DNA of 64,000 bases from Naegleria gruberi (Eukaryota): NCBI GenBank assembly GCA_000004985.1, contig GG738878.1; one strand, given 5' to 3'. The translations under genes were made by a program, and so were the position numbers. Positions 550 to 49,928 of this stretch are shown here, one piece after another (within the stretch, counting starts at the first letter, position 1; each line of letters begins with the position of its first letter). The notes beneath the pieces were generated by a model. It was not told the origin of the DNA. It saw only the letters and a list, made by a program, of their open reading frames with translations, and made no database searches.

Positions 550-3500
550 TTATTTGTTCATTTTGTGTAGCACTGATATCAATTCGTGAGTACTGTCAAC
601 ATTCAACACAATATCCTCATATTGATTACCGAAACTGAACCAAGATCCTGAACTGACAACCCTTATTACTACACTTTCCTTCTCTCCAGGTTTGACTTGG
701 AAAATACTCTTACTGTCATAGGACCAAACAATCTTAATATTTTCCATAATTACTTCTGTTGGAGGTGGATTTCCAACAGAATAAACCTTATCGCCTTCAG
801 TACATTCAACTTTAAATAAGTGTTTATCACCAACGAGAATGATTGCAGGAGTGTTTGTGAAGAAATGTTTCACATAGGTGGTTTCTCCAAATGATGGATC
901 TTTTCTAATCAAATTGTACACATAATTTCCGAAAGCAAGATTCTGGTCGTACGGGTTTAATTTCTTATCTGCACCAACATATCTTGGGAATCTCTTTCTG
1001 GTAACATTGGCATCTCTATCGAAATATTGGGTTGTGTTTTTGAGACCTTCACTTGTTTTGTAGACGAAATCTAAAACACCAGTTACAGGCTTAACTGGAA
1101 TTCCAATTATTCCTTTTCCAATGCCTTTGAAAAAACCTGAAACACCTTCCTTGCTTGCACCTTCGATTGGTTTAGTAAAAATACCAGTACCTGCTTCAAA
1201 TAAACCGAGAGAAAGTGATTGTGCACCTGATAGAATTCCTTCACCAATGTGTTTAGGTCTCTTGCTCAAATGATTGGCCTCCTTTCTCTTAACTTGATAG
1301 TCTTCATCCATAGTCAAAAGACTAATACCATTACTAATTGATTCGGTTACCTTTGATGCTGTATTAAAAGTGCCATGAATTGAATGCTTGAAGAAAGAAG
1401 TAGTTCCCTTGGCCAGTCCTAGTGTAAAATCTTTTGGAGATTTAGTAATTCCTTCCATAGGTTCATAGAAAAGATCGTAGACACCCTTATCTATATCGTT
1501 GAATAGACCAATAGGATTGCCTAAAATATCAAAGCTGCCGAGTATTGCAAACATTTCCTGAATAGCATATCTTGTGTAATGAGATTTCACATTTTCCATG
1601 AGTTGGAATCTAGAAGTTAGAGGAGGATGGTTTAGAATTAAAGCATTTAGTCTGATTGGAGCTTCGTCGACATTCATACTCAATCTTGCTCCTAATGTTC
1701 TCAGCAAAATTGAAAGATCAGAATCTGATTCTGTAGAAATTTCATTGAAGACAAAGCTTAAATCGACCTTGATTGGATGCAATTCAAAGTATTCAAAATA
1801 GATCATTCTATCACTTTGAGGATTTGAGTAAATATTGTGGTCAAAATCAGGTATGATTTCATCGATTTCAGATTCTGCACTAGTATCTATTTTAGAAAGA
1901 ACGATTTGTTTTTCATTATTAACCTTCTTTCCTTTCAGGGATTTAACCATTTCAAATACTTCATGGGCAAATCTAAAGTCAACAGAAAGCTTAGCCTCTT
2001 GCATCAATAATGAAAGATATGGAATGTAATCAAAATCTTTTTCTTTGGTATCTATAATCATACTAAAGTGAAGGAAATCTCTTAATCCAAGTTTGTTGGC
2101 ATTTGTTAAAAGTATTGGGAATGTGCAATTTTCCATTTGATTATCAATACTAAGTCTATTCATCTTGAATTCCAAAAACTGTTTGTTCTTATCGGTCACA
2201 TTAAAGTTAAATGATAAACTTTCGGCTAGCATGTAAAGAAGTTCTTTCTGGAGATGGTTAATGATAGATATTCCAATTCCTTTCAAAAAAACAAAGGATT
2301 GAATCAAATCAGTTTGGGACTCTTCTTCTTCATTTTCTATTTCTGGAAGAACTTCTTGTTCTGAAAATTTCTCTAAAATACTGATAACTCTTGTGTAACC
2401 TCTGTAGGTAGTCAAGCGAATTAATACCTTCTTTTTAAGTTGGCTGATCGTAATTATCTTACTCTTCTTTACCTTGTCGATATCAATGGCACCTAGCTTG
2501 TACTTATCAGCAAGGGTAACATGAATAGAATGTTTGGATTTGATATCTGGTGCAGTATAAGGAATAGTTTGGTTAGGACTAATTGAAATGTACTCGCCAG
2601 TGTAAACTTGTGATACAGATATAGAGTGTGTTGTCTTGTTCACTATAAAGTAAGGGGGTAAAGCTGCCCTTGTGAAATGTACATGAACACAGCCATTTGT
2701 TTCAGTAATTTTTGCAGTTATAAAGTTACCATTAACTATTAATGGAATTTCACCAAGTGTATCAATAGTAAATGGTGTTGACCACTCTGATAATACATCT
2801 CCTGTCTTTAATCGAACACATATCATAGGAGTCTTCTTTCTGTAGAAGTGCATTAAAAGTGGATTGTCAACTTTGATAGTTTCCATCTCTTCAGCATTCA
2901 TTGTCCAATAGAAGTGGCATGGTTTTGTTTGTTGAATTGAATAAATGTGAGTCTCATCCCCAAATTGTTTAGCTTCAATTTCCAATGATTTGTTGTCTTT
3001 TGAATACAGTCCATTCACAAGTAAATATCTTGGTGTAATGATTACTACCTTTGTTCTCTCGTACTTTTCATTAGCCAACGTTACAAATGTTCCCAATTTG
3101 AGTGGTACTTTGCTTTTATCAGAAGCATGCTGTAACACCACCTCAGAGGATGCACCAACAGAATCGATAGAAAATGGTGGTGATGAAAATCCATCACTTG
3201 TTTTAAGGACAACCTTCTTGCTAAATATTAGAGATTTTTCATCTGTATAATTAAACATTAGAGATTCCTTATTATTTACGGTTGTTTTACAACCAAGTAA
3301 ACAATTTTCTTTTGATGAATCCTCAACCTCTATTGAAAAGTCAGTGTAATTCATGATCAAATAAGGACAGTGTACAACAATTTTCAAATAGGTATTGGAA
3401 GTACTTGTAACATCATATTTGAGATTCAAAATTCTTCCTGTAGTGTAAAAATTGGAAAAATTGAGAGATATGTCTTCTTGTTCTGTACTGGAGTTTGAAT

Positions 3501-6500
3501 AAATTAAATTAATATCCTTGGTTTGCCATCCTTGAATAATGGTTTGAATCCATAGTTTAGGTTTTTGCATATCAATCTTGTAAACAAAATGTGTATCACC
3601 TTTCTTAATGAATCCATTATATTTAGCAATTTTGATATTTTCATCCTTAGTGGAAGAACCAAAGAGTGCAAACTGCAAATCTTCTTGAAGTACATTTTGA
3701 ATTGCAAGTGGTGGTATAATATTAATCTTAGTCATCTTATTATGACTGGATTTAGAGTTCAAAATGCAATAAAAGTGGTCTTTCTTATTTGTTGCGTGTT
3801 TGTTCTGAGTAATAATGGTCTTTGCATGGGATTTACGAAGTGTAGAAATGGAATAAAGAAGAGGATCATTTCTTGACCACTTGTACTCACTATGTTCACT
3901 GTTGAGATCCTTGCAAGGTCTTAGAGTGAGAGTAGCATTTTCAACAACCAAATTAGTTGGTAAATAAATGGATTTAAATGGAGAGAGGACCCCAAGAGAA
4001 ACGACTTGTTCACCAATGAAACAACCTAATTGCCAAACTCTATCAGTCTTGTTTCTAATCTTACATCCACTGTGTACAATAATAGTTTTTCTCTTGTTCT
4101 TGTCTTTGATTTCAATAAATACATGATGTTCCAATTGTCCAAATTCTTTGTTAGATACCAGTATTGAATATCCGTGGATTCCATCTTTGTTAGCAAGAAC
4201 CTTTATGATTGTTCCTTCAATATTAAGATCTAAATATTGGTTTCTATCAGAATAGGAAGGAGGGAAAGAGAAATGGATTTCCTGATCTTGCTCAAGAGCA
4301 GTAACTTCGTTGGTAATCTTGAAAGAGGCTTTCAAGCCAGATTTGTTGATTATATTAAATGGTTCAAAGGTAACTGCCAACTCCTTCTGTTTTACAGTGT
4401 CTTGTTCAAGCTCTTTGATCCATGCTTTGGCAGTGCTCACCACAGTTTCCAAAGCAGAATATGTTATATTTAGGTTGATAACATCTTCACATTCAATTTG
4501 AACGATGTGGTTTGGTGATTCCTTTTGGTTTTGATATACGCAATGGATTGGAATTTTGTTCTTTTCAATTATTGGTTCCCATTCTGCATTCTTAAAATTG
4601 TAACAATCACCATAGGCAAGGAATTCTAAATAGGCAGAAATATGATTATCCTGTGGTCCCAAAGACTTGATAAGTGAGTTTAACTTAAATCCTCCCAACT
4701 GCAGTTTCACAATTGGAATGTCAAAACCACTCAGGTCATCCACAACCAATATACTAATAGACTTTAAATCTACAATAATCTTGTTAACGAGCATCTTTGG
4801 AAGAAGCTCATCACTGATCATTTCCTTAAAGTCTTTTGCAATTATAGATTTAGGTTTTGCTTCTGCAAGAGCACACTGCTCAATTATTTGGGTAATGTCT
4901 TCTTCAACTAAAATGGATGGTTTTTCCATTTGTCTCTTGAATTGTTGTGCAATATTATAAAACATTTTAACATCAAAGTAGGAAAGTCTGGTATTACCAC
5001 CCCTCAATAATAAAACTTTGATTATTCGTTCTTCCTTATCTTCTTGACTGGAAATTCTCATAATGTCTATATCTACATCAGTACTATCTACAAGAGGAAG
5101 GGTTCTATTTCCATGCTCAACCAAAATACTCAATCCTGATATTTTGAAAATGCCCTTCTCAGAGAGACCTCCTTCAGTGGATTTAAAGTCAATAGAACTG
5201 CTGAATTTAAGAACAAGAAGTCTACTGTTGACATCGCTTGAAGCTTCAGGTATTACTAGTTGTGGCGTTCCAAAGTCACCCTTCAAAAGCAGTGATGAAG
5301 AGGATGGTTTAAGTAACTTATTATTTTCTTCCAAAACAACTTCATATTGGGAAATATCGTCAATATTTGTTCCAACCATCAGTAGTTCAGCTAATCTGTC
5401 ATTTTGGAAATATTTGGTATCCGAGAAGAAGTGTCTAAAATCTAGTAATAACTCTGGAATAATTACTAGTTTAGGGTTGCTGAGCTTTAGGTTTACAGTT
5501 TCTACCAAGTTTGTTTTGTCATTCTCATAAATCATAGAAAAACAACCATTTGGATCCGAGAATTCAATAAAATTACTAAATACGTTGGTTGTATCTTGTC
5601 TCATATCAGATGCAATGATAGATCCCAAAGTCATATTCATGTGGATACAATCATTGATATCAATCTTGTTATTAAGTTGAAAGTTTGATACAGATAGTTT
5701 AGCAAAGTTTGAACCATTACTCTTTAAAATTAAAAGTGAAATATTTGGAGCCGTAACATAAACATCTGTTATAATAATATTAGAAGAAAATTTTTCAATT
5801 GTCTTTTCTGAAGAAACCCTCTTCAAAAGGAGATCTTTCTTTTTTCTTCTAGTAACCAATGTTCCAATAGATTTGTAGAATTTTCTCTCCTCATTAACAT
5901 CTCTCATACCATCTCTGATATTACCATTAATGAAGTCAAAAATGATTTGATACTGTCTGTGTGTAAGATTAAAGTTAATTTCTGAAAAATCAACAAATAC
6001 CACTTCCTTGGTTATATCAAACTCATTATTGTCTTTTGTTTTGGTGAAAGGAGTAATAATTGGTTTTTTGACATCAACTTTGATGAAAATATCAGAAACA
6101 ATTTTTTCGTGATCGTTCGATGCATCTGAAATAAATTCTAGCATGATATCGTTCAACAATACACTAACATGATCGATGGGAGTATCTGAATTTCCTTCTA
6201 AAAAGTTTTCTACAACCAAATTTCCCAAATGAGCAAGGAAGTGGTCTTTAGATTGAAAGTTGGATGGGAAAATCACCACAGGACTTGTTATTTTGATATT
6301 TAGCTTAATTTGGTTGTTAATGATTCTCTTACTAATTATATCCTTTCCCTTTAGGCCAACTTCAGCTAACTTGTTTCTAGTACTTTCTCTTTTCAAAGCA
6401 TTTAACAGAGGGCCTGATATGTAGTTCTGTGCTTTGTGGTAGAATCTTTGAATGTGCACATATTTAATGGCACTGGTATCCATAGATAAAAATTGTCGAT

Positions 6501-9500
6501 AATTGATTGCTCCTCTTTGTATCAAATCTCTATCACCTTCTTTCTCAGCGAAAAGTTCAGAGGCAGATGCACTGGAGAAAACATATTTGTAATTCAGAGT
6601 GACCACAGAACCTTTGGTCTGATCATAGAGGCCAAGAATTTCCTTGTAAAGAGATGTAGGTTCACTAAGATCCAACAGTTGGATATTTCTTAAACTTCCA
6701 GAAATCGCAACGCTATCTAAATCAATTAGGCATGATATAGTGGTACCAGCATTGATTAATAATTGGGCTATGGTTATACCATTGCTTAGGATAAATACAT
6801 TGGACTCTCCAGCTGTAATTGATGTTGTAAGAAGTTTGCAACTTTCTTGATTACCATCCAATAGCATTTTGGCTATTTCACTAAACTGTTGACCAGCATC
6901 TACTTCATCCTCATCAGGAACATAAGAATAATAATTAATCTTGTTAAAGGCTGATATTTGATCGATAATATCTTGCAAGTCGTAACCGTAGTCAATAAAA
7001 GTAGAGAGAATGGAGGGCTCAACAAAACATTGTAAGCTCTTGAACTCGATTTTGAGTAACATTTGAGAAGAAGGATCATAAATTAAAGAGGTAGGATCTG
7101 TAGATCTGGTGAATGAAACATTGACCAAGTGTTCTTCTGGATTGTTTTCATCTTCTATTGATTTGATAATGTAAAATTCTCTATCTTGCAAAATTTCTGA
7201 TTTTACGTTCATAGAGTGAAGGAATAATTGAATGTTGGTATCCAGATTGTGGTACTGTCGGAAATAAGCGTTCAGATGGGAAAAGTGAATAGAAGCCAAG
7301 TTGAAACTTTGATGAGAAAGAGTCAGTATGAATGAATTCAACTTGAATCTTATGGCTATGAGTACACCTTGTTTTTCTTCCTCCTCATCATCTTCATCGT
7401 CAGAAAAGCTTGCTTCTTTCAAAATATCAGTAATATCATCAATAAAGAAGCTTGTATCGAATGAGTAAATAAACATTCTTAGGGTTGTGATCCAATTTTC
7501 TGTTTCATCCAGAGATGAACATTTGAATTGAATAAATTTCGTTTGATAACCCTTCTTTTGTGGAAGTTCCAATATAAATGTATTTTCTATAGTGTCTGAT
7601 TTGTGTACTTTGGTATGCTTGTTCAAATGTATAATAACATGAAGAAGTCTTGTATCTTCTGTATAAATAAATATCTTCTTAGTACTGCTCACTTCTACGA
7701 AGTAAGGCACAAATTCATTATCTTCATGATTGACTTGTAGAGTTCCCATAATTTTCAAGTCGTTAATTTTCTCCTTTGTACCAGTTGGGTTTTGTTTGAA
7801 TTCTGCTACTAATTGTGTCAACTTTGAAACAGCAAGCATACTCTCTTTGGAAAGAATAAAGTTAATCTTTGGAATATCAAGCAAGAGTTGAACTTTTTCT
7901 TCCACGGTTTCTTCTTTGTGTTTAATAGCACTTGCTGCCAGTGAGGTCTTTTCTAAAATAACATCATATGTAGTAATTTGTTGTTGGTCTGTCAGATATC
8001 CAATAGCATTAATATCTTTAGGAACAACAATTTCCATATTTTCCAGATTGATATCGAACTTTTCTCTGGAAGCTATGCTAGTATCTTTACGCAGTTTGAG
8101 CAATCCAAAATCAAGTAAAAGGAATCTACTGTCAGGATCTGTTGGATTCCAAGGAATGATGATTTGTGGAGCCTTGATATCGAAGGTTAGATCCACAGTG
8201 GTGTCATCTTGCATAAGAACTTCCTTAATCTCCTTTTTGGCCAATTTAGATACTTTCTTGATATGCCTCTTGGCTTCTTTTTCTAAGCGTTTGATATTGA
8301 CATTGTCAAAGTATAAGAATGAAAGTATTCTTTGGAAAAATTCAAAGTTAACTACAATATCGATTTGATTAAGAGCTACCGTCAAATAAATATCACTCTC
8401 TTCATTCTTTTTCTCCAAAGTAGATCGCTTCTCAATGTACAAAGAAAGAAGGTTAGAGGAAGTTTCATTGTACCTTTTAGATTTTGTAATAATTTCAGGA
8501 TAAAGAGTTTGCTTGAATCTATCGAATAATGTTAAATTACCCATAGAAGAACAAACTTTGAATGCTTTGTGAGGTAAAATTTGAATATCTGATACGAATC
8601 TATCTACTTCAAGTTCTAGTAAATCATTTCTTTCGTGATAGACCCTAAATGCTACCTTGGCCAAATCTACGTGGACTCTAACCTTTACATAGTCATCAGG
8701 TATTTCAACGGGTTTCTCTTCATAACCTATAGATTTGTACAGTTCTTCTTTCACCTTATCAGAAAGCTCAATAGCCTTTGCTTGTAGTTTATCTTTCGAG
8801 AACCAGCTTGATTTCTTTTTATGCTCTTCGAAATTCTTTGCTTCCTGATTAATTTCCTTATGTGCACACTTTCTGAAGAACAGAACTTCCTGCAGTGTTC
8901 TTTGATCTTCCAGCTCAGCTAATCTCTTCTCTTCATCTGGGCTGAGCTTTTGCTTGGTTACCCACGGAACTTTTACATGAGTTTTGTAAAGCTTGACGTA
9001 TTCTTTACAATGTAAGCTCAAAATATTTTCATAATGTTGCTTTTTCTTGTCCATTTGTCTCTGAAAATTAACACATTTGAGGGCATACTTCCAATAAGAA
9101 ATGGGGTCAAATTTCTCAGGTCTAAAATGTCGGTATTGGCTTTGGATTGAATAATTTGTAATATATTCCACAATTTTAAAAATGGAATTATACTGATTCT
9201 GACTCAAACACATCTGAATATCATGCACAAAGTGAAAATCAAAATTAAAAACTGGTCTTGTAAAATCTATCCCTGAAGCGGAGAGCTTTTGCATAGTAAG
9301 CTTCAAAAATCCGTCTACTGGTTCCAACAAGTACACTCTGTCATTGGCTTTGATAATGCTCTGTATTATGTCTCTATCGCAAACTTTCTTTTCTATACAT
9401 GTATTTACAAAATCTTCTTTCTCTGTCCAAGGATTCAAATATATCGCCAGCTTGGACATGGTCAATAATTTATAAGTTAATTCTCCTAAATTTTTCTGAA

Positions 9501-10080
9501 ATTTAGTTTCAAAGTTTTCATTTGTAGAATTTACTTCCATACTCTCTAAATAAAATCCACCAACACAGTTATTATCATCTTGATATCGGATATGAATATT
9601 CTCAATTTTAATCTTTAAATTATTTAAAACTGTTTCTATCAACTTGTCGAAAAATCCTTCTTCTGTTTTTTCATCACCTGTACTAGCTGCTGCCTTTTCT
9701 GCTTTGGCAGCTTCTTGTTTTTCAAATTGATCCAATACGTGTTTTTTTAAATCTCGTTGCCTTTGTTTTTCCTCTTCTTCAACAAATGGTCTTCTCATCT
9801 TCGGACGAAGAACAATATATACATCCTTCAATCTACAAACAACAGATTTAGCATTTAAACTTGTATAGGGAACATCAAATTCAAGAAGGGATATGTGACT
9901 AAAAGAAATATAAAAAGGTATTGAATCCGAAATATTATCCAAAGCATACTCCTTCAATTTAATATCATTCAAAGAAGCAACACCTTTCAATACAGCAATA
10001 TTTAAATTCTTCCGATCAAAATTATCAACATATTGTTGCAAGTATGGTACAAGCAAACTAGATACAATATTCTCAATCAT
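550..10080 (-). CDS. VPS13: VPS13-family bulk lipid-transfer protein (3176 aa, single exon)
   Basis: Uninterrupted 9.5-kb ORF. The N-terminus MIENIVSSLLVPYLQQYVDNFDRKNLNIAVLKGVASLNDIKLKEYALD matches the chorein-N motif of VPS13/ATG2. The C-terminal region (DLFYEPMEGITKSPKDFTLGLAKGTTSFFKHSIHGTF..., then a PH-like end) matches the VPS13 C-terminal ATG-C/PH region. ATG at 10080 sits in an A-rich context. Confidence 0.85.
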   Translation of the reverse strand: MIENIVSSLLVPYLQQYVDNFDRKNLNIAVLKGVASLNDIKLKEYALDNISDSIPFYISFSHISLLEFDVPYTSLNAKSVVCRLKDVYIVLRPKMRRPFVEEEEKQRQRDLKKHVLDQFEKQEAAKAEKAAASTGDEKTEEGFFDKLIETVLNNLKIKIENIHIRYQDDNNCVGGFYLESMEVNSTNENFETKFQKNLGELTYKLLTMSKLAIYLNPWTEKEDFVNTCIEKKVCDRDIIQSIIKANDRVYLLEPVDGFLKLTMQKLSASGIDFTRPVFNFDFHFVHDIQMCLSQNQYNSIFKIVEYITNYSIQSQYRHFRPEKFDPISYWKYALKCVNFQRQMDKKKQHYENILSLHCKEYVKLYKTHVKVPWVTKQKLSPDEEKRLAELEDQRTLQEVLFFRKCAHKEINQEAKNFEEHKKKSSWFSKDKLQAKAIELSDKVKEELYKSIGYEEKPVEIPDDYVKVRVHVDLAKVAFRVYHERNDLLELEVDRFVSDIQILPHKAFKVCSSMGNLTLFDRFKQTLYPEIITKSKRYNETSSNLLSLYIEKRSTLEKKNEESDIYLTVALNQIDIVVNFEFFQRILSFLYFDNVNIKRLEKEAKRHIKKVSKLAKKEIKEVLMQDDTTVDLTFDIKAPQIIIPWNPTDPDSRFLLLDFGLLKLRKDTSIASREKFDINLENMEIVVPKDINAIGYLTDQQQITTYDVILEKTSLAASAIKHKEETVEEKVQLLLDIPKINFILSKESMLAVSKLTQLVAEFKQNPTGTKEKINDLKIMGTLQVNHEDNEFVPYFVEVSSTKKIFIYTEDTRLLHVIIHLNKHTKVHKSDTIENTFILELPQKKGYQTKFIQFKCSSLDETENWITTLRMFIYSFDTSFFIDDITDILKEASFSDDEDDEEEEKQGVLIAIRFKLNSFILTLSHQSFNLASIHFSHLNAYFRQYHNLDTNIQLFLHSMNVKSEILQDREFYIIKSIEDENNPEEHLVNVSFTRSTDPTSLIYDPSSQMLLKIEFKSLQCFVEPSILSTFIDYGYDLQDIIDQISAFNKINYYSYVPDEDEVDAGQQFSEIAKMLLDGNQESCKLLTTSITAGESNVFILSNGITIAQLLINAGTTISCLIDLDSVAISGSLRNIQLLDLSEPTSLYKEILGLYDQTKGSVVTLNYKYVFSSASASELFAEKEGDRDLIQRGAINYRQFLSMDTSAIKYVHIQRFYHKAQNYISGPLLNALKRESTRNKLAEVGLKGKDIISKRIINNQIKLNIKITSPVVIFPSNFQSKDHFLAHLGNLVVENFLEGNSDTPIDHVSVLLNDIMLEFISDASNDHEKIVSDIFIKVDVKKPIITPFTKTKDNNEFDITKEVVFVDFSEINFNLTHRQYQIIFDFINGNIRDGMRDVNEERKFYKSIGTLVTRRKKKDLLLKRVSSEKTIEKFSSNIIITDVYVTAPNISLLILKSNGSNFAKLSVSNFQLNNKIDINDCIHMNMTLGSIIASDMRQDTTNVFSNFIEFSDPNGCFSMIYENDKTNLVETVNLKLSNPKLVIIPELLLDFRHFFSDTKYFQNDRLAELLMVGTNIDDISQYEVVLEENNKLLKPSSSSLLLKGDFGTPQLVIPEASSDVNSRLLVLKFSSSIDFKSTEGGLSEKGIFKISGLSILVEHGNRTLPLVDSTDVDIDIMRISSQEDKEERIIKVLLLRGGNTRLSYFDVKMFYNIAQQFKRQMEKPSILVEEDITQIIEQCALAEAKPKSIIAKDFKEMISDELLPKMLVNKIIVDLKSISILVVDDLSGFDIPIVKLQLGGFKLNSLIKSLGPQDNHISAYLEFLAYGDCYNFKNAEWEPIIEKNKIPIHCVYQNQKESPNHIVQIECEDVINLNITYSALETVVSTAKAWIKELEQDTVKQKELAVTFEPFNIINKSGLKASFKITNEVTALEQDQEIHFSFPPSYSDRNQYLDLNIEGTIIKVLANKDGIHGYSILVSNKEFGQLEHHVFIEIKDKNKRKTIIVHSGCKIRNKTDRVWQLGCFIGEQVVSLGVLSPFKSIYLPTNLVVENATLTLRPCKDLNSEHSEYKWSRNDPLLYSISTLRKSHAKTIITQNKHATNKKDHFYCILNSKSSHNKMTKINIIPPLAIQNVLQEDLQFALFGSSTKDENIKIAKYNGFIKKGDTHFVYKIDMQKPKLWIQTIIQGWQTKDINLIYSNSSTEQEDISLNFSNFYTTGRILNLKYDVTSTSNTYLKIVVHCPYLIMNYTDFSIEVEDSSKENCLLGCKTTVNNKESLMFNYTDEKSLIFSKKVVLKTSDGFSSPPFSIDSVGASSEVVLQHASDKSKVPLKLGTFVTLANEKYERTKVVIITPRYLLVNGLYSKDNKSLEIEAKQFGDETHIYSIQQTKPCHFYWTMNAEEMETIKVDNPLLMHFYRKKTPMICVRLKTGDVLSEWSTPFTIDTLGEIPLIVNGNFITAKITETNGCVHVHFTRAALPPYFIVNKTTHSISVSQVYTGEYISISPNQTIPYTAPDIKSKHSIHVTLADKYKLGAIDIDKVKKSKIITISQLKKKVLIRLTTYRGYTRVISILEKFSEQEVLPEIENEEEESQTDLIQSFVFLKGIGISIINHLQKELLYMLAESLSFNFNVTDKNKQFLEFKMNRLSIDNQMENCTFPILLTNANKLGLRDFLHFSMIIDTKEKDFDYIPYLSLLMQEAKLSVDFRFAHEVFEMVKSLKGKKVNNEKQIVLSKIDTSAESEIDEIIPDFDHNIYSNPQSDRMIYFEYFELHPIKVDLSFVFNEISTESDSDLSILLRTLGARLSMNVDEAPIRLNALILNHPPLTSRFQLMENVKSHYTRYAIQEMFAILGSFDILGNPIGLFNDIDKGVYDLFYEPMEGITKSPKDFTLGLAKGTTSFFKHSIHGTFNTASKVTESISNGISLLTMDEDYQVKRKEANHLSKRPKHIGEGILSGAQSLSLGLFEAGTGIFTKPIEGASKEGVSGFFKGIGKGIIGIPVKPVTGVLDFVYKTSEGLKNTTQYFDRDANVTRKRFPRYVGADKKLNPYDQNLAFGNYVYNLIRKDPSFGETTYVKHFFTNTPAIILVGDKHLFKVECTEGDKVYSVGNPPPTEVIMENIKIVWSYDSKSIFQVKPGEKESVVIRVVSSGSWFSFGNQYEDIVLNVDSTHELISVLHKMNK

Positions 10081-14126: not shown

Positions 14127-15439
14127 ATGCCTAAACTTGCTTTGGATTTTTCAACAACTGCCTTTGACTCATATGTGCAAGATTTCAAAAGGTACACCTC
14201 TCAATTTGTGGATTTTATGTGGAGAGTTTACGAAACTTATCCAATATTGAGTATTTCACTTGGGGCATATGGATTGTTTTTAATGTTGAAAAAGTTTGTA
14301 TTTGGAGGAAAGTATTGTCCAGAGTACTTGATAACCACCTCTGAAATGTCTGGTAAAGTAGCCATTTTGACGGGTGGTAATAGTGGATTAGGATTCAGTC
14401 TTGCACAACAATTGGCTTGTAAAGGAGTAAAAGTGATATTGGCAGTTCGAAATCCTCAAAGAGGATTAATGGCCAGGTCAAAAATTGTACACTACATTAA
14501 GAAAGAAACAAATATAGACCCACCTCTCGATTCTGTTCAGGTGTATCATTGTGATTTATCGAGCCTGGAGAGTGTAAGGGAGTTTGTAACTAGTGTACAA
14601 ATCATGCTTTCCAGTAATCCAAAAGTGAAGAAGGTAGTTAATCAAGTTGGTATAGAATTGGTCACTGAAACCCAAGAGACCTATCCAGTCATTGATTTCC
14701 TTATCAATAATGCAGGAAGTATCTATCCAACTCATAGGTAAGTTTCATTATTGGCTCATTTGCTTATGCAACACATTAAAGCGTTTCTGCAAATGGAATA
14801 GAGGCACATTTTGCTGGAAATTATTTGGGACACTATTATCTTACACAGCTCTTGTTGAAGAATGGCCTAATGAAAGACAATTGCAGAATTTTGAATATTG
14901 TGTCCTCTCCCTCTCTATTTTCTGATGAAATTTACACAAGCCATAGTTCGCTTTATGAATTTTCATTATTGGATTTATTGGAGGATGGTAAATTGAAATT
15001 TGATCCTCAACAGCTCTATATGAGAAGTAAATACGCTCTCTACCTCTTTTCAATTAAACTACAGAGAGAGTTGAATCAAAGAAACATACATGGTCACTTC
15101 ATACCAAGGCATGCACAAGTATTCAGTGTATTTCCAGGAGCAACCCAAACCTCTTCAATGGTCAAGACTTCCTCACCATTTGCAAGAATTTTTACGAAAC
15201 CTTTGGAATTACTTCTTTTGAAGAGTCCTTGGCAAGGTATTCAATCTGCCTTGTACTGCTTATTAGAACACTCAAGTAAGCTTAGGGGAGGTGAATTTTA
15301 TGCTGAGTGCAGTCACTCACCACAACCAATAACTCAATCAGATGAACAACGCATGCTTCAATTATGGAATGTCTCTCATAACTTGATTCAAAACTTTGAG
15401 AAAGCTGCTTCATCTCATGGATCACACAGCCTACCTTGA
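14127..15439 (+). CDS. Short-chain dehydrogenase/reductase (retinol-dehydrogenase-like), two exons about 14127..14737 and 14782..15439
   Basis: Exon 1 carries the Rossmann motif ILTGGNSGLGFSLAQQLA and ends LINNAGSIYPTH followed by AG|GTAAGT. A 44-nt intron ends AAAG. Exon 2 continues ..SVSANGIEAHFAGNYLGHYYLTQLL, matching the SDR pattern NNAG(x10)DGFE..NHLGHF. The two listed ORFs (14127..14741, 14825..15439) are in different frames and join cleanly this way. Confidence 0.7.
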
Positions 15440-16783: not shown

Positions 16784-16863
16784 TTTTTTAAAATAATTTT
16801 TATAAAAATTTGCGCCAAAATTTATAACAATTTTATTATTTTTATTTAAATTCTAAGAAGAAA

Positions 16864-18253
16864 TTAAAGAATGTGATTGATTGAGAATTTTTCACGAGGA
16901 ACAGAACAAACTTCGAATGAGGAATCAATAGAGACTTCCTTTTTCATCAATTCATTCAACATTTCACCAACGACAATGCCAAATTTGAAGCCATGACCCG
17001 AACCACCCAAGAAGGTTGAAATATTCTTCTTACCACTCTTTGTTGGAATGTAATCAATGACAAAATCTTCAGTTGGTGTCATTTCATACATGCAGGTAAC
17101 GACACGATCCTTTTCATTGATTAATTCTTCATAACTTTCGTCCAATTTAACAAGTCCTTCTGGAATAACCTTCTTGAGATAGGTTTGCATGGCTTGGAGC
17201 TTTTCCTTTTCAACTGGACGTTCTTGATTTGAATCAATTTGTTGAGCTCTTTCGTCTGGATCAAAACCTCTTTCCAAATCTCCAAATACCTTGTGAGTGG
17301 CAGATTTGATATAACCCTTCTTTTCCCATTCTGGGAAACCATAGTAAGCAAGATCTAATGGTCTATCAGAGAATGGATCTAATCCCCAAGCAATCCAAAT
17401 TGGCTATTTTACAATAATATTAAGATTCAAATTGAAATTATATAGAGATACTTACTGAATTTGCAGCAGTGAGAACATTTTCTTGGACTGCCTTTTCAGT
17501 GAGCTTCCAATAAACATAACACATTCTCAATACTTCAAATTTAATGTCCAAATCAAAGTGTTGTTTAAGGAATTTCTTTGAATAGGCACCAACACAAATG
17601 GACAATTTTCTAGTTTGGAATCTCTTTCCACTTGAAGTTACAACAGTGATAATATCATCCTCTCCTTCAATAATACTTTCAACTCTTTCCTTTTCAACAA
17701 TTGAATGTTTTTCATGATCGTAATCACTCAACAAGACAGTTCTAATCTTGTTTGGATTCAAAATACCAGCTTCTGGTGAATACACGGCAAGGGTATCATC
17801 AGGAAGTCCAGTAAATTGTGGGAATTTTTGTCTCAATTGTGCACCAATTAAAACTTCATGTTCAATTCCTCTTTCTTTAGAAACTTTAGCAACCTTATTG
17901 ACATTTTCATCATCCAATTGACCAATATCCAATCCACCAGTTTTCACAAAGAAATTTTCAAAATCTTTAACAGAAGGCCACATTTCCAAAGCCTTTGTAG
18001 CCATCAATGAATAATGATAATCATCATAGGCAACTCTATAATTTAATAAATATTCGGAATATTGAACTATTAACACAAACCTAATAATTCTTGATTCACC
18101 ATGTGATGATCCCTTCGAATGCATCAATTCAAATTGTTCCAACAATAAAACTCTCCCGAAACTTGCACCATCACGTGTAGCCTGATGAAAGAGAGAAGCT
18201 CCGGCAATGCCCGAACCAACAATCAACAAATCATAAATTAAATCTTGTTGCAT
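16864..18253 (-). CDS. FAD-dependent sarcosine / L-pipecolate oxidase (MSOX/PIPOX family), three exons about 18253..18080, 18034..17456 and 17403..16864
   Basis: FAD motif YDLLIVGSGIAGASL...SSHGESRIIR. A 45-nt in-frame intron (GTTTGT...TTATAG) joins RIIR to VAYDDYHY. A 52-nt intron (GTAAGT...AAATAG) joins ...LTAANS to PIWIAWGLDPFSDRPLDLAYYGFPEW. The C-terminal exon has DPDERAQ...VTCMYEMTPTEDFVIDY...GGSGHGFKFGIVVGEML, matching the PIPOX/MSOX C-terminus. ATG at 18253 (MQQDLIYDLL). Confidence 0.8.
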
Positions 18254-18484
18254 TTTTTTTGTTGTTTTTAACAGTTTTCTGATCTTTCGACTTCGGAGAT
18301 GTGTTGAAACCCTATGGATAACAAATTGAAGAAACATTCCAACCGTTGATCAGTCATCTGTAGCAGCATACAGAGCTTGCATGTTGTCTGAAATGTGCAA
18401 AAGAAAGCACTAGTTTGCAGGGTAATGTGTGAAGAAAATTGAAAGAAGAATTTGTGAATTGAGAGATGTTATGTGATTAATTGT

Positions 18485-19506
18485 TTACTTTTTGAGTTTT
18501 GCCTTGAATTTTTCACCCATTAAGGATCCAATAACTTCTGCCATTGGTTCCAGTTCAGATCCAGAAATTAAATCAAACTCGAATGTAAAGTACATGAACT
18601 AATATTGAATGAATGATTCAGTAATGCATAATATTGAGAATTACTTACATGCTTGAAAGCAGTGTTTAAGTGGGCTGTATAATTATGGAAATTAATTGAA
18701 AATTTGTAAATTGAAAAAATTATTGTGAATTCTTCTTACCTTCTTCTCCAAGAATTTTAATTTGTTCCAAGTGATGAGCATAAATGTGAGCATAGACACG
18801 GAATAATCTCTTGAAAATATTTTTAATTATTTTTCCAAAATCCTAAATTTGGAAAAATTATTCAAAAATTGATCAAAATTCGCCAAAAAATCAAAAGATT
18901 AGTTGAATATAATTATGAATATTAATAGAGGAAATGAAAATAAAAACAAACCTTTGGAAAATCTTGACTCGCATCAGTTGGAAATACATTTTCATCATTT
19001 AACAAACTTTCAACCCATTCCATTAACAAGGTAACATAATCCTTTGCACAAACTGCTGTTGGTTTATCATATTTTGGATCATCTAATACATTATTTTGAT
19101 CAGTCTCCTCTAAAAAATTATATTAGAAACATACCTGGATTCATCCACAAGTATTCGAAATTTTCACCACTTGTCATTTTAGGACAAGTACTTGGTGTAC
19201 AGTATTCTTCAAGAGAACCATAAAGAATATTAATTCCATTTACAAAATCTACAACGTGAACAGCCAACCATTCATTCTTCTTTTCACCAGCTATTAAAAA
19301 AATATATTCGAAACATTTTTAAATTATTAGAAACACATACGTGGTAATTTTACAGTATTTTCCAAACCGGCAATACCCAAAGATGAAGTTGATTTCTGCA
19401 TAGCATTCTTCATCCTTTCATTCAATTGTTTGTCACAATCGATATTCTTTTTAAAAGTCTTTTTTTTATCAGAAACTCCCATCAATCCTTTTAATACACT
19501 GGCCAT
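18485..19506 (-). CDS. MOB1: MOB1 (Mps-one-binder) kinase activator, six exons
   Basis: Spliced product: MASVLKGLMGVSDKKKTFKKNIDCDKQ... / ..PGEKKNEWLAVHVVDFVNGINILYGSLEEYCTPSTCPKMTSGENFEYLWMNP / EETDQNNVLDDPKYDKPTAVCAKDYVTLLMEWVESLLNDENVFPTDASQDFPK / ..FGKIIKNIFKRLFRVYAHIYAHHLEQIKILGEE / AHLNTAFKH / FMYFTFEFDLISGSELEPMAEVIGSLMGEKFKAKLKK. It matches MOB1 along its whole length. Approximate exons (minus strand): 19506..19341, 19290..19135, 19109..about 18950, 18841..18740, 18674..18649, 18598..18485. Introns are 50, 25, about 110, 65 and 50 nt, with GTATGT/GTAAGT donors. The exon 3/4 junction is ambiguous (see findings). Confidence 0.8.
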
Positions 19507-22359: not shown

Positions 22360-25022
22360 TTATTTTTCAGTTAGTGCTAAAGCATAATCCTCACTACAAT
22401 TCTTTTCAGCCATACTCTTCAAGTATTGAGCTCTTCTCTTCAACTCGGCAATATATTTAATGGAGGAATAATCAATAGCGAGTTCTTCTGGTTTGTAAGT
22501 TTCTTTCCATTGTGCATTGAGTCTGTAAATTTCCTCAATTTCTTCAACGGCAGTGTCATACTTTTTATCAAAGAGAGCATCTCTTATTCTCAATAACCTA
22601 TCACTCACCACCTTCTGTGAGGATGTAATATCTTCAATTTCACCGTCGACAGTGTAAACTTCAGTTGGTTTGGATTTACCTTTTAGTCTGACTGAATCGA
22701 CATACATGCAAATAAACTTATTCTTCACAATCTCATAAGTATTGTTGCCGATAAGAATTGGTGTATCATATCTCTTGTTTAACATTTCTAATCTACCAGC
22801 AGTGTTAACAGTGTCACCAATAGCTGTGAAACTGAATCTATCCTTTGATCCAATATTTCCCATCATACAATTACCAGTATTGACACCAACTCTAATCTTG
22901 ACAATTGGAAGATTTTCCTTAATACATTTCGATTTCAATTGGTCAATCTTGTACAAACAAAGAACTGCAGCCCTTGTTCCCTTATAGGCATGGTCTTGTA
23001 CAACTCTTAATGGATTTGAAAACAGACTCATGGTACCATCCCCAATGAATTTATCAATAATACCATCATGTGCCTCAACTGTCTCAGTAATAATATTGAA
23101 ATACTCTGTCAGAATTTTAAGCAAAACAGACAAGCTTGAAGATTCTGAAAACGAAGTAAAATCTGCAATATCAGTAAACATAACAGTTGAATTCGCATTG
23201 GCCATTCCCAACTTGGAAGCATTACCTGTTCTTACAATATCCCTGACAATATCTTTTGGAATATATTTCATAAAACTGTGCAAACCATTCTTCACTGTCT
23301 TGATTGAGGTCTGTAATAGATCGAGTTCATACATGGTCTTAAGGACCTTGGATGGCTTCACTGTATCAACTTCAAGTTTAGAAATCTTGTACATATCTCT
23401 GGAAACTTTCCATATTGATCTTGTAATGAATTGAGTAACAACTATCATTAATAAGGTACCCAGAATAATAAGTATAATAGATACTGATAATAGAGCGGGT
23501 GAACTTGTGAAAATGGTCTTGACGAACCCATAGTCCTCTGTAACAATCACCACAATCCAATCAAGCCCATTATCGGTAATTTGGTGGATAGTAATCTTGC
23601 TGTTACCCACCATGAACATTGAAAAATCTGCATTTGGGTCTAAGCTTTCCTTAATTGTGCTCGTTGGGATAGTAGTAGCAGTTCCCCACATGGACTTTGG
23701 AAGATGGTACAGTATCTTTCGATCTTCCAGCACTGTACAAACCTCTGAGAATACTTCAGTTGTGTTCGAGATGTGATTTCTCACATTGGACGGGTCTTTT
23801 GTTTGCGCATTGAATGAAGAAGATATAATCAAGCCGTGTCTCTCAACAATCAAAACCTTAATAGATATTGTTTGCATATCCTTATTGGCCTCAATAACAT
23901 TAACAAGCGAACTATCAATATTGTACAAATCAAAGTGAGCACCAACAATTTGAGTAACATTTCTTGTCTCGACAGTTCCATTAGGATAGACATAATCCTG
24001 AGTATTAATAAAATCCAACGTTGTGGAAGCTCCCAGTGATGTAGCTCCAATGAATGCGTTGAAAAACACAGGTGACCACATGTAATCTGGATATGTCTTA
24101 GAAAGACCTGCCTTAAACCATGGTCTAATGGTTGGATCGTAGTTTTTGCTGGCCTGCTTTAACATGATTGGTTCATAAAAATCATCTCTCGAATAAATAC
24201 CAACAGTAGCATTATCATCTCTGATTTGAATGGTATCTCGCGTTACACTCTTTTCAATGGCACAATAATTCTTAATACTGTTGCCGTAGTAAAAGATTGA
24301 TGAACTAGGGAAGCTACTCTTGGAAGGTCCAAAGACAGATCTTATCCTCCTGCAAGTGTCATCATAACTATTGGTCAATTTGAAATTTAGTTTGTGGTCC
24401 TGGATCAATATGCCATTTCTCATCGTTTCCAGGATTGTTGGTGCTACATTGATAAAATCCTTGATTTTAGTCACGATATTCTTCTCTCTGATTGTTGTTA
24501 TATTATTAACGGATTGTTCTCCGCTTGAGTAGAACAATAATATTAAGGAACCTATGATGAATAATTATTAACATATATATTATTAAAAACTGTTAACTTA
24601 CCAATGCAAATAGCTGTTTGAAGGAGAAAGACAACGAGAAGAATATTTTGGAGAGTGTGTGGGGCTGGACAACATTCTTTGAAAAACCTTTTCATCTTGC
24701 CTTTCTTTCCCTCAGAGTACCCAAATAAATCATCAAATGTTGAACTTATCGTTGAAATTCCATCTGATTGAAGGCTTAGTGAGGCATGGGATGAAGAATT
24801 TTCTGTATTGGATTGGAAATAGTTTGTTGGTGGGTGTTCATTTGGTTCGCTTGCTGTTGTTGAGGTAATATAGGTATTCGATCTAGAGTTAAAATCACTT
24901 GAAAAGTCTAAACTCCCAGATGATGGATAAATCTTATTATCAAAATAATAAGATGCAGAATTAGATCTGTGTGATCTTGTTTTTGATATCTGCTGATGAA
25001 GAGGTGTTACTTGGGTAACCAT
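22360..25022 (-). CDS. Receptor-type class III adenylyl/guanylyl cyclase with an extracellular Cache-like sensor, two exons 25022..24602 and 24551..22360
   Basis: Exon 1 is a low-complexity cytoplasmic N-terminus followed by ..ILLVVFLLQTAICIG|GTAAGT. A 50-nt intron ends CATCATAG. Exon 2 begins SLILLFYSS.., so a TM helix spans the junction. The ectodomain of about 330 aa contains YDPTIRPWFKAGL, the R-P-W-[FY] signature of Cache domains. A second TM follows (LLSVSIILIILGTLLMIVVTQFI). Cyclase catalytic core: VMFTDIADFTSFSE...IDKFIGDGTMSLFS...IRVGVNTGNCMMGNIGSKDRFSFTAIGDTVNTAGRLE. Confidence 0.8.
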
Positions 25023-31756: not shown

Positions 31757-33089
31757 ATGTCTTCACTACAATCCTCTCCGTCTCTCAGACAGGTTAGATT
31801 TGATGAGAATGTGATGATTGAGAGTTTTAATAGTACTGTTGCATATGCTTCTTCTACAACTTCCGATTCTCCTAAAGGCTTTAGAAAATCATCAATTTAT
31901 TTAACTTTAATATTTGCGAGCATGTTTATAATTTTCGATTTAATGTTACCACTGTATAATAAGAGTTTATTTGCAGGATTTGGATCGCGAGGAGGATTTC
32001 ACTATCCAGTAACATCATCGTTGATACAGGTTGGAGGAACTTCGATTTGCTTACTGGTGGCAGTTGTTTTAAATTGGATAATCAAGACTAAATTATTGGA
32101 TTTACCTCATCCTTATTTTGTGTTTAGTGGTGGATTGAAGCAATTCTTTTTGAAAATGTAAGTTGAATGAGGATGAAATTTGACATTTTGAAAGTAAGGA
32201 GCTTGTGTTGGTTGCATTTCTATTTGCTTGTGTTATAGTATTGAGTAATTTGGGATTGGATAAGGCTTCTATTAATGTAAATGTTTTATTGAGGACAACG
32301 AGTATTATTTGGATAATAATTTTATCATTTTTATTGAGATCTGAAAGACCATCTCTATTGCAAGTATTATTTGCATTATTAGTGACAGCTGGAGCAGTGT
32401 TATTGAGTTTGGATGTTGGACTTGGATGGTCGGTCAAGACAACTAATATTCCTGCTGTGATTGTTAATTTGGCATCTGCTCTTTGTACTGGTATCATGTT
32501 TGTTTCAATGAGATTTGTTGTGGCGAGACAGGAAAAGTATGAACATTTGAGAATGGGACTTTTGGAAATGACCATGGTTAAAATGTTTATGGCAACTTTA
32601 TTTATTGTAATTCCAGCATTGGCAATGGAAACTATTGTTCCATTTGCAGATGCCAAAGTAACAGTATGGCAAATATTATTTACAAAATTGGATATGTTAG
32701 TAATGGTCTTGGGAGGAGTATTGATCACCTTACTATTCCAAGGTTCCATTCTATCTTTGACAGTTTACTCAAAAGCTCTCAGTGTTGGAATCATTCAACA
32801 ATTTATGATATTTCCACAAGTTGCTTTATATACTATCATTAGTGTAACTCATCTGGTACCAAGAAATTGGAATATTCAAGTATTGCAACCAACATGGTCA
32901 CATATTACTGGTGGATCGTTAATTATTGCTGGAACTTTCTTTTATGGAATTTTGAGAATTGTTAAAACAATTGACCAAAAGAGAAGAATGAAGCAATTAC
33001 AGGATTCTCCATCGATCAATGAAGAAACAACATCTCTGGTCAATTCCAAAGAGCAAATACCTAAAAAGTGGTATGATTGGATTATTTAA
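31757..33089 (+). CDS. Multi-pass membrane transporter, DMT/SLC35-like (about 10 TM), two exons 31757..32157 and 32195..33089
   Basis: Exon 1 ends ..GGLKQFFLK-AT|GTAAGT. A 37-nt intron ends GAAAG. Exon 2 (TAAGGAGCTTGTG...) continues in frame as I-KELVLVAFLFACVIV... The listed ORF 32205..33089 starts at GTG, consistent with being internal to an exon. The product is hydrophobic throughout, with repeated 5+5 TM halves typical of drug/metabolite or nucleotide-sugar transporters. Confidence 0.55.
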
Positions 33090-46904: not shown

Positions 46905-47544
<640 letters not shown>

Positions 47545-47872: not shown

Positions 47873-49928
47873 ATGACAATAAAAAATATGAAAACTTCTT
47901 CCACATTTGCCTCCTCAAGCAATAAGTCTTCCTTATCATCAATGCGAGGAAGTGGATTGAATAAATTATTTTGTAGTAATAATGATTATTATCGGAAAAG
48001 TGTTTGGATATTTGTGTTGATTTGTTCGGTATGGATGATCATGATTGGAAGTGGAGTGGATGCATATAGAATTAATTTTGATGAAAGTCATGGGAGTGTA
48101 AGTGTTCTTTTTTGATCTTTGTGTGGAAAGAGAGATTTATCAATATTTGTGGAATTTTCAAATTATTTAGTTTACTTCGGATGTAACTCAGGGAAAATTA
48201 TTGGATGAATATGAATTGGGAATGTATGCTAGAGAGGATCTTCCATTGAGAGTTTTAACAAGACCCATTGCTAATGGTGACACATTTGTTCAAGTTTATT
48301 GTAAGTACACTATTTAATGATACAATATATTTACGAGGTTTTTTTAGTAAATGTTAAACAATCAAGCATTCCAACTCCTGATACCAAATTAGTTCTCATT
48401 GTTGCTAACAGTGAGATACTTGCAACTGGTTTTAAGAAGGATCAGAAAGTATGTAATAATTATTAATTCTGTTTGGATCTGATTGAAATTATATTTTAGA
48501 ATGAATATTTGTGTGGAGACGAAGGATTAGTTCCAACTTCTCAAAGCACACTCGATGATGATGGAATTTTATATTACAAATATTTCAGTGGAGATGAAGT
48601 AATTGATGAGAATTTCGAAGTGCCATTAACAGGTCTCTACCAATACAAATTATTCTACTGTCCTGCCACTAACCCAACTAAGGAAAGACCAAAGTCTGGT
48701 GAAGCCAATTTCAAAATGAATGGTTACATTCAATTCATCAATCCATATGGTCACTTGCCAGGTCAATATTTCTTCTTCTTGCCAGTATGTATATTTGCTT
48801 AATATTTTCCTAATAATTCAATTCCAGTTCCAAGCATTCATGACAATTGCTTATATTGTTTTTGCTGTCCTTTGGTTTTTGGCCTCTATTTTCAATAGAA
48901 AGGAATTCTTAACTCTCCAATTCTACATTACTATTGTCTTGATGAGTTGTTTAGCAGAAGCTTTGATTGTCTATTTTGATTACTTTTTAACTAACAAAAT
49001 TGGAAGTCGTAACTTTGTTGTTCAACTTTGCTCAATGGTTATGACTGTCATTAGAAAGACTTGGACTAGACTCATCATTTTGGTGGTTTGTTCAGGATAC
49101 TCAAGTGCCACAAAGGAGGAGGATGATGAATCATCTGAAAATACCTCTTCTCAAAAGAAAGTAACAACAACCATGATCATTATTTATTCAGTTATATTTG
49201 CAATTTCATGCTCAGTTTCAGAATTTGGAGAATTTTTATTCTTTAGAGAGCTCATTTCACACACTCAATATTTGATCTCCATGGTTCCAACATCCTGCTT
49301 GGATTTCTTCTTCTATGTCTGGGCTCTTTACTTGCTCTACCATACTATGAAGATGTACAAGCCTTCAAATCCAAAAGCTGTCACTGCCAGAGAAAGGGCT
49401 TCCCCAGAATGGAAACATGCAGTTGCCAATAACCACTACTTCTACTTGTATAGAAGATTAATGTTTGCCATGATTATTTACGCTTGGACTGTGCTTATTT
49501 TCTTAGTTCTCCAATTCTTCTACGAATATGGTCAATACTACAGAAGTGCTTGGTATTTGAACTGGCTTTTTGACTCTGCATCTTACCAAATTGCATTCTT
49601 TGCCTTCTTTGTTTTAGTTGGTTTATTGTACAGACCTGCCAAACACAACTCACTTTACTTACATTCTGAACAACTCCCAACTGATGAATTGGATGCTGAT
49701 ATGATGCTAAAGGAAGGTACTGGTCTCGAATATCAAAGTGACGATAGTGATGAAAAGGATGTAGAAATGATGATGATGCAAAATAATGAGCCAATATCTA
49801 ACGATGACGAATCTGACTCTAAGGAAAGCAGAAAGAGTCAAGAAAAACTTGTATTCTCTGAAGATCATGAAACCCCAACAAGTACAACTCCTGCAGTTGA
49901 GAAGGTTGAGACCACCACTCAACAATAA
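47873..49928 (+). CDS. GPR107/GPR108/TMEM87-like (lung-7TM-receptor family) membrane protein, five exons
   Basis: Exons 47873..48097, 48171..48300, 48348..48448, 48500..48784 and 48828..49928, joined by GTAAGT/GTATGT...AG introns of 73, 47, 51 and 43 nt with consistent phases. Signal/TM at the N-terminus. Luminal domain ..DEYELGMYAREDLPLRVLTRPIANGDTFVQVY/LNVKQSS..LVLIVANSEILATGFKKDQK/NEYLCGDEGLVP..LFYCPATNP... Then a seven-TM block (FMTIAYIVFAVLWFL..LQFYITIVLMSCLAEALIVYFDYF..LCSMVMTVIRKTWTRLIILVV..) and an acidic C-terminal tail. Confidence 0.75.

Follow-up and report, generated by a model that had tools for sequence, protein, structure and literature searches.

A proposed 25-nt intron in Naegleria gruberi MOB1 is most likely the first half of an annotated 52-nt intron

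The window analysed here is a 64-kb stretch of Naegleria gruberi NEG-M DNA whose GC content, 33%, equals the published value for the species (PMC8296547). Its minus strand carries a MOB1 gene, interrupted by five introns (Table 1), whose product is a protein of the MOB1/phocein family. We compared spliced protein sequences with public gene models by exact look-up. Ten window-encoded proteins have exact N. gruberi matches in GenBank, those of intron-less open reading frames being EFC42583.1, EFC42671.1 and EFC42678.1, which share a single 395,411-bp contig. The same look-up returned no exact public match for the spliced models of an EamA/TPT-like transporter (431 aa, 31757..33089, plus strand) and an SDR protein (422 aa, 14127..15439, plus strand), nor for a multi-pass membrane protein with four 5' introns (47873..49928, plus strand) and an adenylate-cyclase-like gene (22360..25022, minus strand). 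We also note an uninterrupted 3176-aa open reading frame (550..10080, minus strand) that takes up ~15% of the window.

Eighteen introns were catalogued across the window, with lengths of 37-188 nt, a median of 50 nt and a GC content of 21%. Eleven of them come from models equal to GenBank proteins (five in MOB1, two in a DAO/sarcosine-oxidase-like gene, and those of EFC42679.1, UBC9, RasGAP and UBC4), two from gapless homology across the junction (SDR and transporter), and the other five from frame continuity and splice signals only (g22360, and four introns of g48041). Automated approaches served poorly: a naive scan that joined open reading frames yielded 4660 candidate introns, 397 of them with good donors, and was too noisy for use, and a gene finder that chained segments by codon score fused all genes through cheap long introns at its first settings. 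A stricter run was workable but joined the oxidase to its neighbour via a false 59-nt intron, kept the 45-nt oxidase intron as coding and truncated MOB1. Because of these faults, the catalogue was curated by hand against homology. One 34-nt candidate (47367..47400) was discarded in the process, as the UBC4-like E2 gene in which it lies needs a 172-nt intron, 47229..47400, to give a product equal to EFC42680.1.

The initial annotation of this region had read its introns as short, canonical GT-AG spliceosomal introns with strong donors, and that general reading is right. The donors are mostly GTAAGT or GTATGT, as it had said (nine and six cases, 15/18 in all), with two GTTTGT and one GTAAGA making up the remainder; the acceptors are TAG in 13 introns, CAG in three and AAG in two. 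The description of the branch motif fared less well. A CTAAT element 10-15 nt upstream of the AG is present in just two of the 18 introns, and in MOB1 introns 1 and 2 the TTCTAAT string follows the donor immediately, with its branch-like A at intron positions 14 and 12, respectively, while 'yeast-like' overstates what is a degenerate YTRAY. Such a motif, with its A 11-18 nt before the 3' splice site, occurs in 10 of the 18 introns against 3.1 expected, a count reached by 3 of 5000 shuffles, and in all ten of these introns the acceptor is the first AG after the branch A.

Table 1. Coordinates of MOB1 and of the introns and intron elements discussed in the text
Feature	Position	Strand	Description
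MOB1 coding region	18485..19506	-	ATG at 19506, TAA at 18487..18485; 6 exons, 231 aa
MOB1 intron 1	19291..19340	-	50 nt; same position in N. lovaniensis, with 55 nt, and in N. fowleri-like contig, with 61 nt
MOB1 intron 2	19083..19134	-	52 nt, phase 1, GTATGTTTCTAATATAATTTTTTAGAGGAGACTGATCAAAATAATGTATTAG; best-supported intron at the site
25-nt candidate	19110..19134	-	GTATGTTTCTAATATAATTTTTTAG, GT..AG; ends at internal TAG upstream of predicted branch point
Distal 27 nt of intron 2	19083..19109	-	would encode EETDQNNVL under the 25-nt version
CTAAT just after intron 2 donor	19122..19126	-	A at 19123, intron position 12; branch-like element used by the initial annotation for the 25-nt version
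CTGAT, predicted branch motif of 52-nt intron	19099..19103	-	branch A 19100, intron position 35, 17 nt before 3' splice site
MOB1 intron 3	18843..18951	-	109 nt; 49 nt in N. lovaniensis; absent from N. fowleri-like contig; 1-nt indel in L005
MOB1 intron 4	18675..18739	-	65 nt, donor GTAAGA; position shared with orthologs; 14-nt indel in L005
MOB1 intron 5	18599..18648	-	50 nt; position shared with orthologs; 4-nt indel in L005
Oxidase (DAO/sarcosine-oxidase-like) intron 1	18036..18080	-	45 nt, donor GTTTGT, in frame, stop-free in NEG-M; position conserved
Oxidase intron 2	17404..17455	-	52 nt; position conserved, 76 and 92 nt in orthologs; 2-nt indel in L005
SDR gene intron	14738..14781	+	44 nt, GTAAGT...AAG; sole in-frame GT..AG with this donor
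Transporter (EamA/TPT-like) intron	32158..32194	+	37 nt, GTAAGT...AAG; shortest supported window intron

Left unspliced, the MOB1 frame at 19134 stops at once (CCA GGT ATG TTT CTA ATA TAA), and an intron is therefore needed at this point. The initial annotation proposed one of 25 nt. Part of that claim stands, in that the GT..AG stretch exists and its removal, together with the four other introns, opens a 240-aa MOB1-like frame. However, the same donor paired with an AG 27 nt further on (19084..19083) restores the frame equally, in the same phase, to give a 52-nt intron and a 231-aa product, and it is this version that is better supported. The two products differ solely by nine residues, EETDQNNVL. 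Since both acceptors keep the frame, frame restoration is unable to choose between them.

Splicing out the 52-nt intron 2 along with the other four yields a 231-aa protein that matches EFC42673.1 / XP_002675417.1 / D2VKE6 at every residue. This entry is deposited for N. gruberi NEG-M as 'cell cycle associated protein MOB1', and the longer version differs from it by the nine added residues. An exact look-up among ~15 billion proteins in public collections found no copy of the 240-aa product. The public model could itself be homology-driven. We recovered orthologous loci from N. lovaniensis (L001), Willaertia magna (L002) and an N. fowleri-like metagenome contig in ENA (L003); over the coding part that they have in common, the MOB1 fragment of this contig equals the N. 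fowleri protein. At the intron 2 site the DNA of N. lovaniensis, the N. fowleri-like contig and W. magna runs straight through (TGGATGAATGCCGATGATCC, ...GCCGACGATCC and ...CAAGATGATAA, respectively), and relative to these three loci the window has exactly 52 extra bases. Removal of those 52 nt leaves a frame colinear with the orthologous proteins and with the intron-less orthologous DNA. The MOB1 proteins of N. lovaniensis and N. fowleri are 231 aa long with no indel relative to the 52-nt model, that of Willaertia is 228 aa, and all three fit removal of 52 nt; none agrees with the product of 25-nt splicing. A protein-based scan of metagenome contigs revealed no further Naegleria MOB1 loci, and a search of metagenome contigs with a cDNA-junction pattern allowing a 0-27-nt gap gave no match.

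The nine residues are also unusual for the protein family. They appear in no homolog compared, and in alignments to PDB structures EETDQNNVLDD faces a gap. Among the top 120 MOB1 homologs, 112 matched a pattern spanning the loop from EYxW to SAPxY; this loop has 12-15 aa in 111 of the 112, the sole outlier being an obviously duplicated model. In N. gruberi the loop would have 15 aa if 52 nt are removed, as against 24 aa if only 25 nt are.

The splice signals within intron 2 can be set beside those of the catalogue. The donor is consensus-like, GTATGT, as in 6/18 window introns, and the 52-nt version ends in a TAG that is the first AG after the CTGAT motif, with no AG in between; the 17 nt from the predicted branch A to the splice site fall inside the 11-18 nt range of the catalogue. 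The AGs at intron positions 25, 27 and 30 all lie upstream of the predicted branch A at position 35. In the 25-nt version, the branch A would lie 11 nt from the donor G; the minimum in the nine other introns with a clear branch motif is 25 nt, found in the 37-nt transporter intron. The window holds no ultra-short class into which a 25-nt intron would fit, the other 17 introns all being at least 37 nt long under a gene finder that allowed introns of at least 20 nt. Recursive or nested splicing was rejected, since the junction formed by taking out the 25 nt has no GT donor.

Further information comes from two contigs of ENA ERZ929261 (PRJEB11402 metagenome), L004 and L005, which we compared with window positions 16860..19137. 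They are ~98-99% identical to N. gruberi NEG-M, with the differences concentrated in introns and intergenic DNA; the four exon differences are all synonymous, including the lone one in the part of MOB1 that the comparison covers. L005 shows a 1-nt indel in MOB1 intron 3, one of 14 nt in intron 4 and one of 4 nt in intron 5, and a 2-nt indel in oxidase intron 2, a pattern that supports the other intron calls. L004 ends about 27 nt before intron 2, so that only L005 covers it, and there L005 carries the same 52 nt with zero differences. The identity in an independent assembly means that the segment is not a sequencing error; it also means that polymorphism cannot separate coding from non-coding sequence within it.

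With the coordinates, frame restoration, ortholog colinearity, identity to the public model and motif spacing directly established, we consider it very probable that 19110..19134 is just the 5' half of a 52-nt intron, which is an ordinary U2-type GT-AG one already annotated in MOB1. The central claim of a 25-nt intron near the physical minimum finds no support in orthologous DNA, protein lengths, the public model or branch spacing, and most likely reflects a miscalled acceptor. As for the branch point and AG actually used by the spliceosome, we infer the following course. U1 would recognise the donor CAG/GTATGT, and the ACTGATC branch region would pair with U2, with A 19100 as the predicted branch nucleotide. 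The acceptor would then be the TAG at 19085..19083, the first AG downstream of that A, and the AGs at positions 25, 27 and 30 would be skipped, being upstream of the branch point. The outcome of such splicing would be the 231-aa MOB1 protein as deposited in GenBank.

One property of the distal 27 nt fits this reading less easily. Read in the exon frame, they are stop-free and have a codon log-odds score of +2.69, as compared with a mean of 2.17 for 9-codon windows of the MOB1 coding sequence. Among the 373 stop-free windows from the 17 remaining introns none scores as high, and of 4872 stop-free windows in intergenic DNA no more than 2.8% do. The 27 nt have a GC content of 30%, the other introns one of 19%. 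The resemblance may be due to chance, or may be a trace of where the inserted DNA came from. Because of it, we retain a small probability for some use of the proximal AG.

The form of such use that survives best, though we regard it as unlikely, is a choice between 3' splice sites in which the 52-nt intron is the main one and the proximal TAG (19112..19110) is used at some level, to give a minor 240-aa isoform with EETDQNNVL in a surface loop. Both acceptors keep the frame, the proximal AG is preceded by TTCTAAT 13 nt upstream and by a T6 tract directly before the TAG, the 27 nt are coding-like as described, and the insertion sits in a loop opposite an alignment gap, outside any helix. These points are to be weighed against a branch A much closer to the donor than the at least 25 nt seen in other introns, the intolerance of homologs for loops longer than 15 aa, and the absence of a 240-aa protein from public collections. 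Taken overall, constitutively or as a minor acceptor, genuine use of the proximal TAG is improbable; it would mean that the N. gruberi spliceosome excises a 25-nt intron with its branch A 11 nt from the donor. Were it true, no ultra-short intron would have been reported from Heterolobosea before, and a hidden size class comparable to the type B introns of Trichomonas (23-25 nt) might exist; RNA showing use of the proximal AG would lower both the known minimum intron size for the lineage and the tolerated donor-to-branch distance.

Constitutive removal of 25 nt, by which N. gruberi MOB1 would be a 240-aa protein with a lineage-specific 9-residue insertion, is considerably less likely still. The codon-score gene finder, which accepted introns from 20 nt, preferred it because the 27 nt score as coding, and introns of 23-25 nt work in other protists (Trichomonas, Paramecium), so the length is physically possible. 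However, it requires two novelties to coincide at one site, a new intron whose length has no parallel in the rest of the window and an insertion of 9 aa, the protein being otherwise without an indel between N. gruberi, N. lovaniensis and N. fowleri, and it clashes with both the public model and the loop-length constraint. That the 52 nt are no intron at all, but arose as an artefact of sequencing or assembly or disable a pseudogene into which they were inserted, is scarcely credible: the sole basis for it is that the segment is missing in relatives, whereas the same 52 nt recur in L005, they have a consensus donor, branch motif and acceptor and leave a fully conserved protein when removed, and the one MOB1 exon difference between strains is silent.

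Among N. gruberi and the three relatives compared, intron 2 occurs in N. gruberi only, which implies either a lineage-specific gain or parallel losses elsewhere. Only N. lovaniensis and the N. fowleri-like contig have a MOB1 intron after EWL (155 and 161 nt); in Willaertia the gene has one intron, and this lies at a different site. Intron presence and absence thus vary among close relatives, and shared introns differ much in length (for example, 45 versus 197 and 218 nt).

Several sequence similarities bear on where intron 2 may have come from. MOB1 introns 1 and 2 both start with GTATGT(G)TTTCTAATA, and TGTTTCTAATA, found just after the donor in these two introns, occurs nowhere else in the 64-kb window on either strand. 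There is a further similarity between intron 2, at positions 7-24, and the 3' part of intron 1 (TTCGAATATATTTTTTTA), with an alignment score reached by 30 of 5000 shuffles. The N. lovaniensis intron that follows AATGAATGGTTAG, 130 nt upstream of the intron 2 site and absent in N. gruberi, begins GTATGTTTCT. The statistics are marginal, and these resemblances may at most hint at a recent, N. gruberi-specific gain of intron 2 seeded by sequence of its neighbour, intron 1. An origin by tandem duplication of exon sequence was set aside by eye, the intron ends being unlike the flanking exon.

The other short introns named in the initial annotation, of 37, 44, 45 and 52 nt, are real, and their lengths are in keeping with those of the window as a whole. 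The junction created by the 44-nt SDR intron aligns without gaps to PDB 3rd5_A, and that created by the 37-nt transporter intron does so to the N. lovaniensis and Willaertia orthologs. The transporter gene needs an intron here, as there are stops in the frames on both sides. A homology search with the transporter returned no N. gruberi protein from NCBI, just a 294-aa open reading frame fragment, and annotation pipelines may have overlooked the 37-nt intron. The N. lovaniensis transporter model (336 aa) is without an N-terminal part present in Willaertia (430 aa).

In the oxidase gene, the positions of both introns are shared with orthologs, which bears out the 52-nt intron as first described. 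The 45-nt intron is likewise real, although its boundaries had been given as 18035..18079, one base off, so that it would not begin with GT. The spliced 430-aa oxidase is identical to EFC42672.1. In the compared stretch, 16864..18253, N. gruberi lacks a third oxidase intron, which measures 56 and 65 nt in the orthologs. The 45-nt intron is indeed a multiple of three with no in-frame stop in NEG-M, where it would encode FVLIVQYSEYLLNYR, and its retention as an insertion variant is formally possible in that strain. Evolutionary support for such a variant is absent, however: in L005 a T>G substitution makes an in-frame TAG out of TAT, and the intron's counterparts in N. lovaniensis (197 nt) and the N. 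fowleri-like contig (218 nt) have lengths that leave 2 on division by three and a stop at codon 2. The open frame is thus not conserved, and neither L005 nor the two orthologous introns give any sign of selection for an insertion isoform. By exact look-up, the 445-aa intron-retained oxidase is absent from public collections. Being 3n in length and stop-free, the 45-nt intron would escape nonsense-mediated decay if retained, and in this it is like the 3n stop-free introns of ciliates discussed in connection with 'splicing spellchecking' by that pathway (PMC5014332), from which it differs in being a single case whose property is not conserved.

The intron and the gene model discussed here are already in GenBank, and short GT-AG introns are known for Naegleria. 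For N. gruberi, 1.7 exons per gene and introns averaging 203 bp are reported, the latter figure being larger than the median of 50 nt in our window, and in a study of N. fowleri the minimum intron length was set to 30 bp from predicted genes (PMC8296547). By these figures introns of 37-52 nt are within the known range for the genus and one of 25 nt is below it. As it stands, the finding is of little consequence, the other introns being ordinary for N. gruberi. It does offer a lesson for annotation: where one donor is followed by two in-frame acceptors, frame restoration leaves the choice undecided, and orthologous DNA decides.

Nor would 25 nt be close to a physical minimum, as had been supposed, since shorter introns are documented, of 15-16 nt in Stentor and 18 nt in the Bigelowiella nucleomorph; the type B introns of Trichomonas measure 23-25 nt (PMC12316389, PMC13644364) and the introns of Paramecium about 25 nt (PMC5014332). 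The 25-nt candidate resembles the Paramecium and Trichomonas type B classes in size and the latter also in having a CTAA-type motif with a T-rich remainder. The organisms with ultra-short introns, however, have whole classes of them with transcript evidence, whereas the present candidate stands alone, with no other intron below 37 nt, gives a product at odds with every ortholog, and has a conventional 52-nt intron as its alternative. Budding yeast differs from the window in its branch sequence, an invariant TACTAAC where the window introns have CTAAT, CTGAT, TTAAT, TTAAC or TTGAC. A close likeness is to the short canonical U2-type introns found in protists and fungi with compact genomes, with which the window introns share GT-AG ends, GTAAGT or GTATGT donors, a degenerate YTRAY and a short distance from the branch to the AG.
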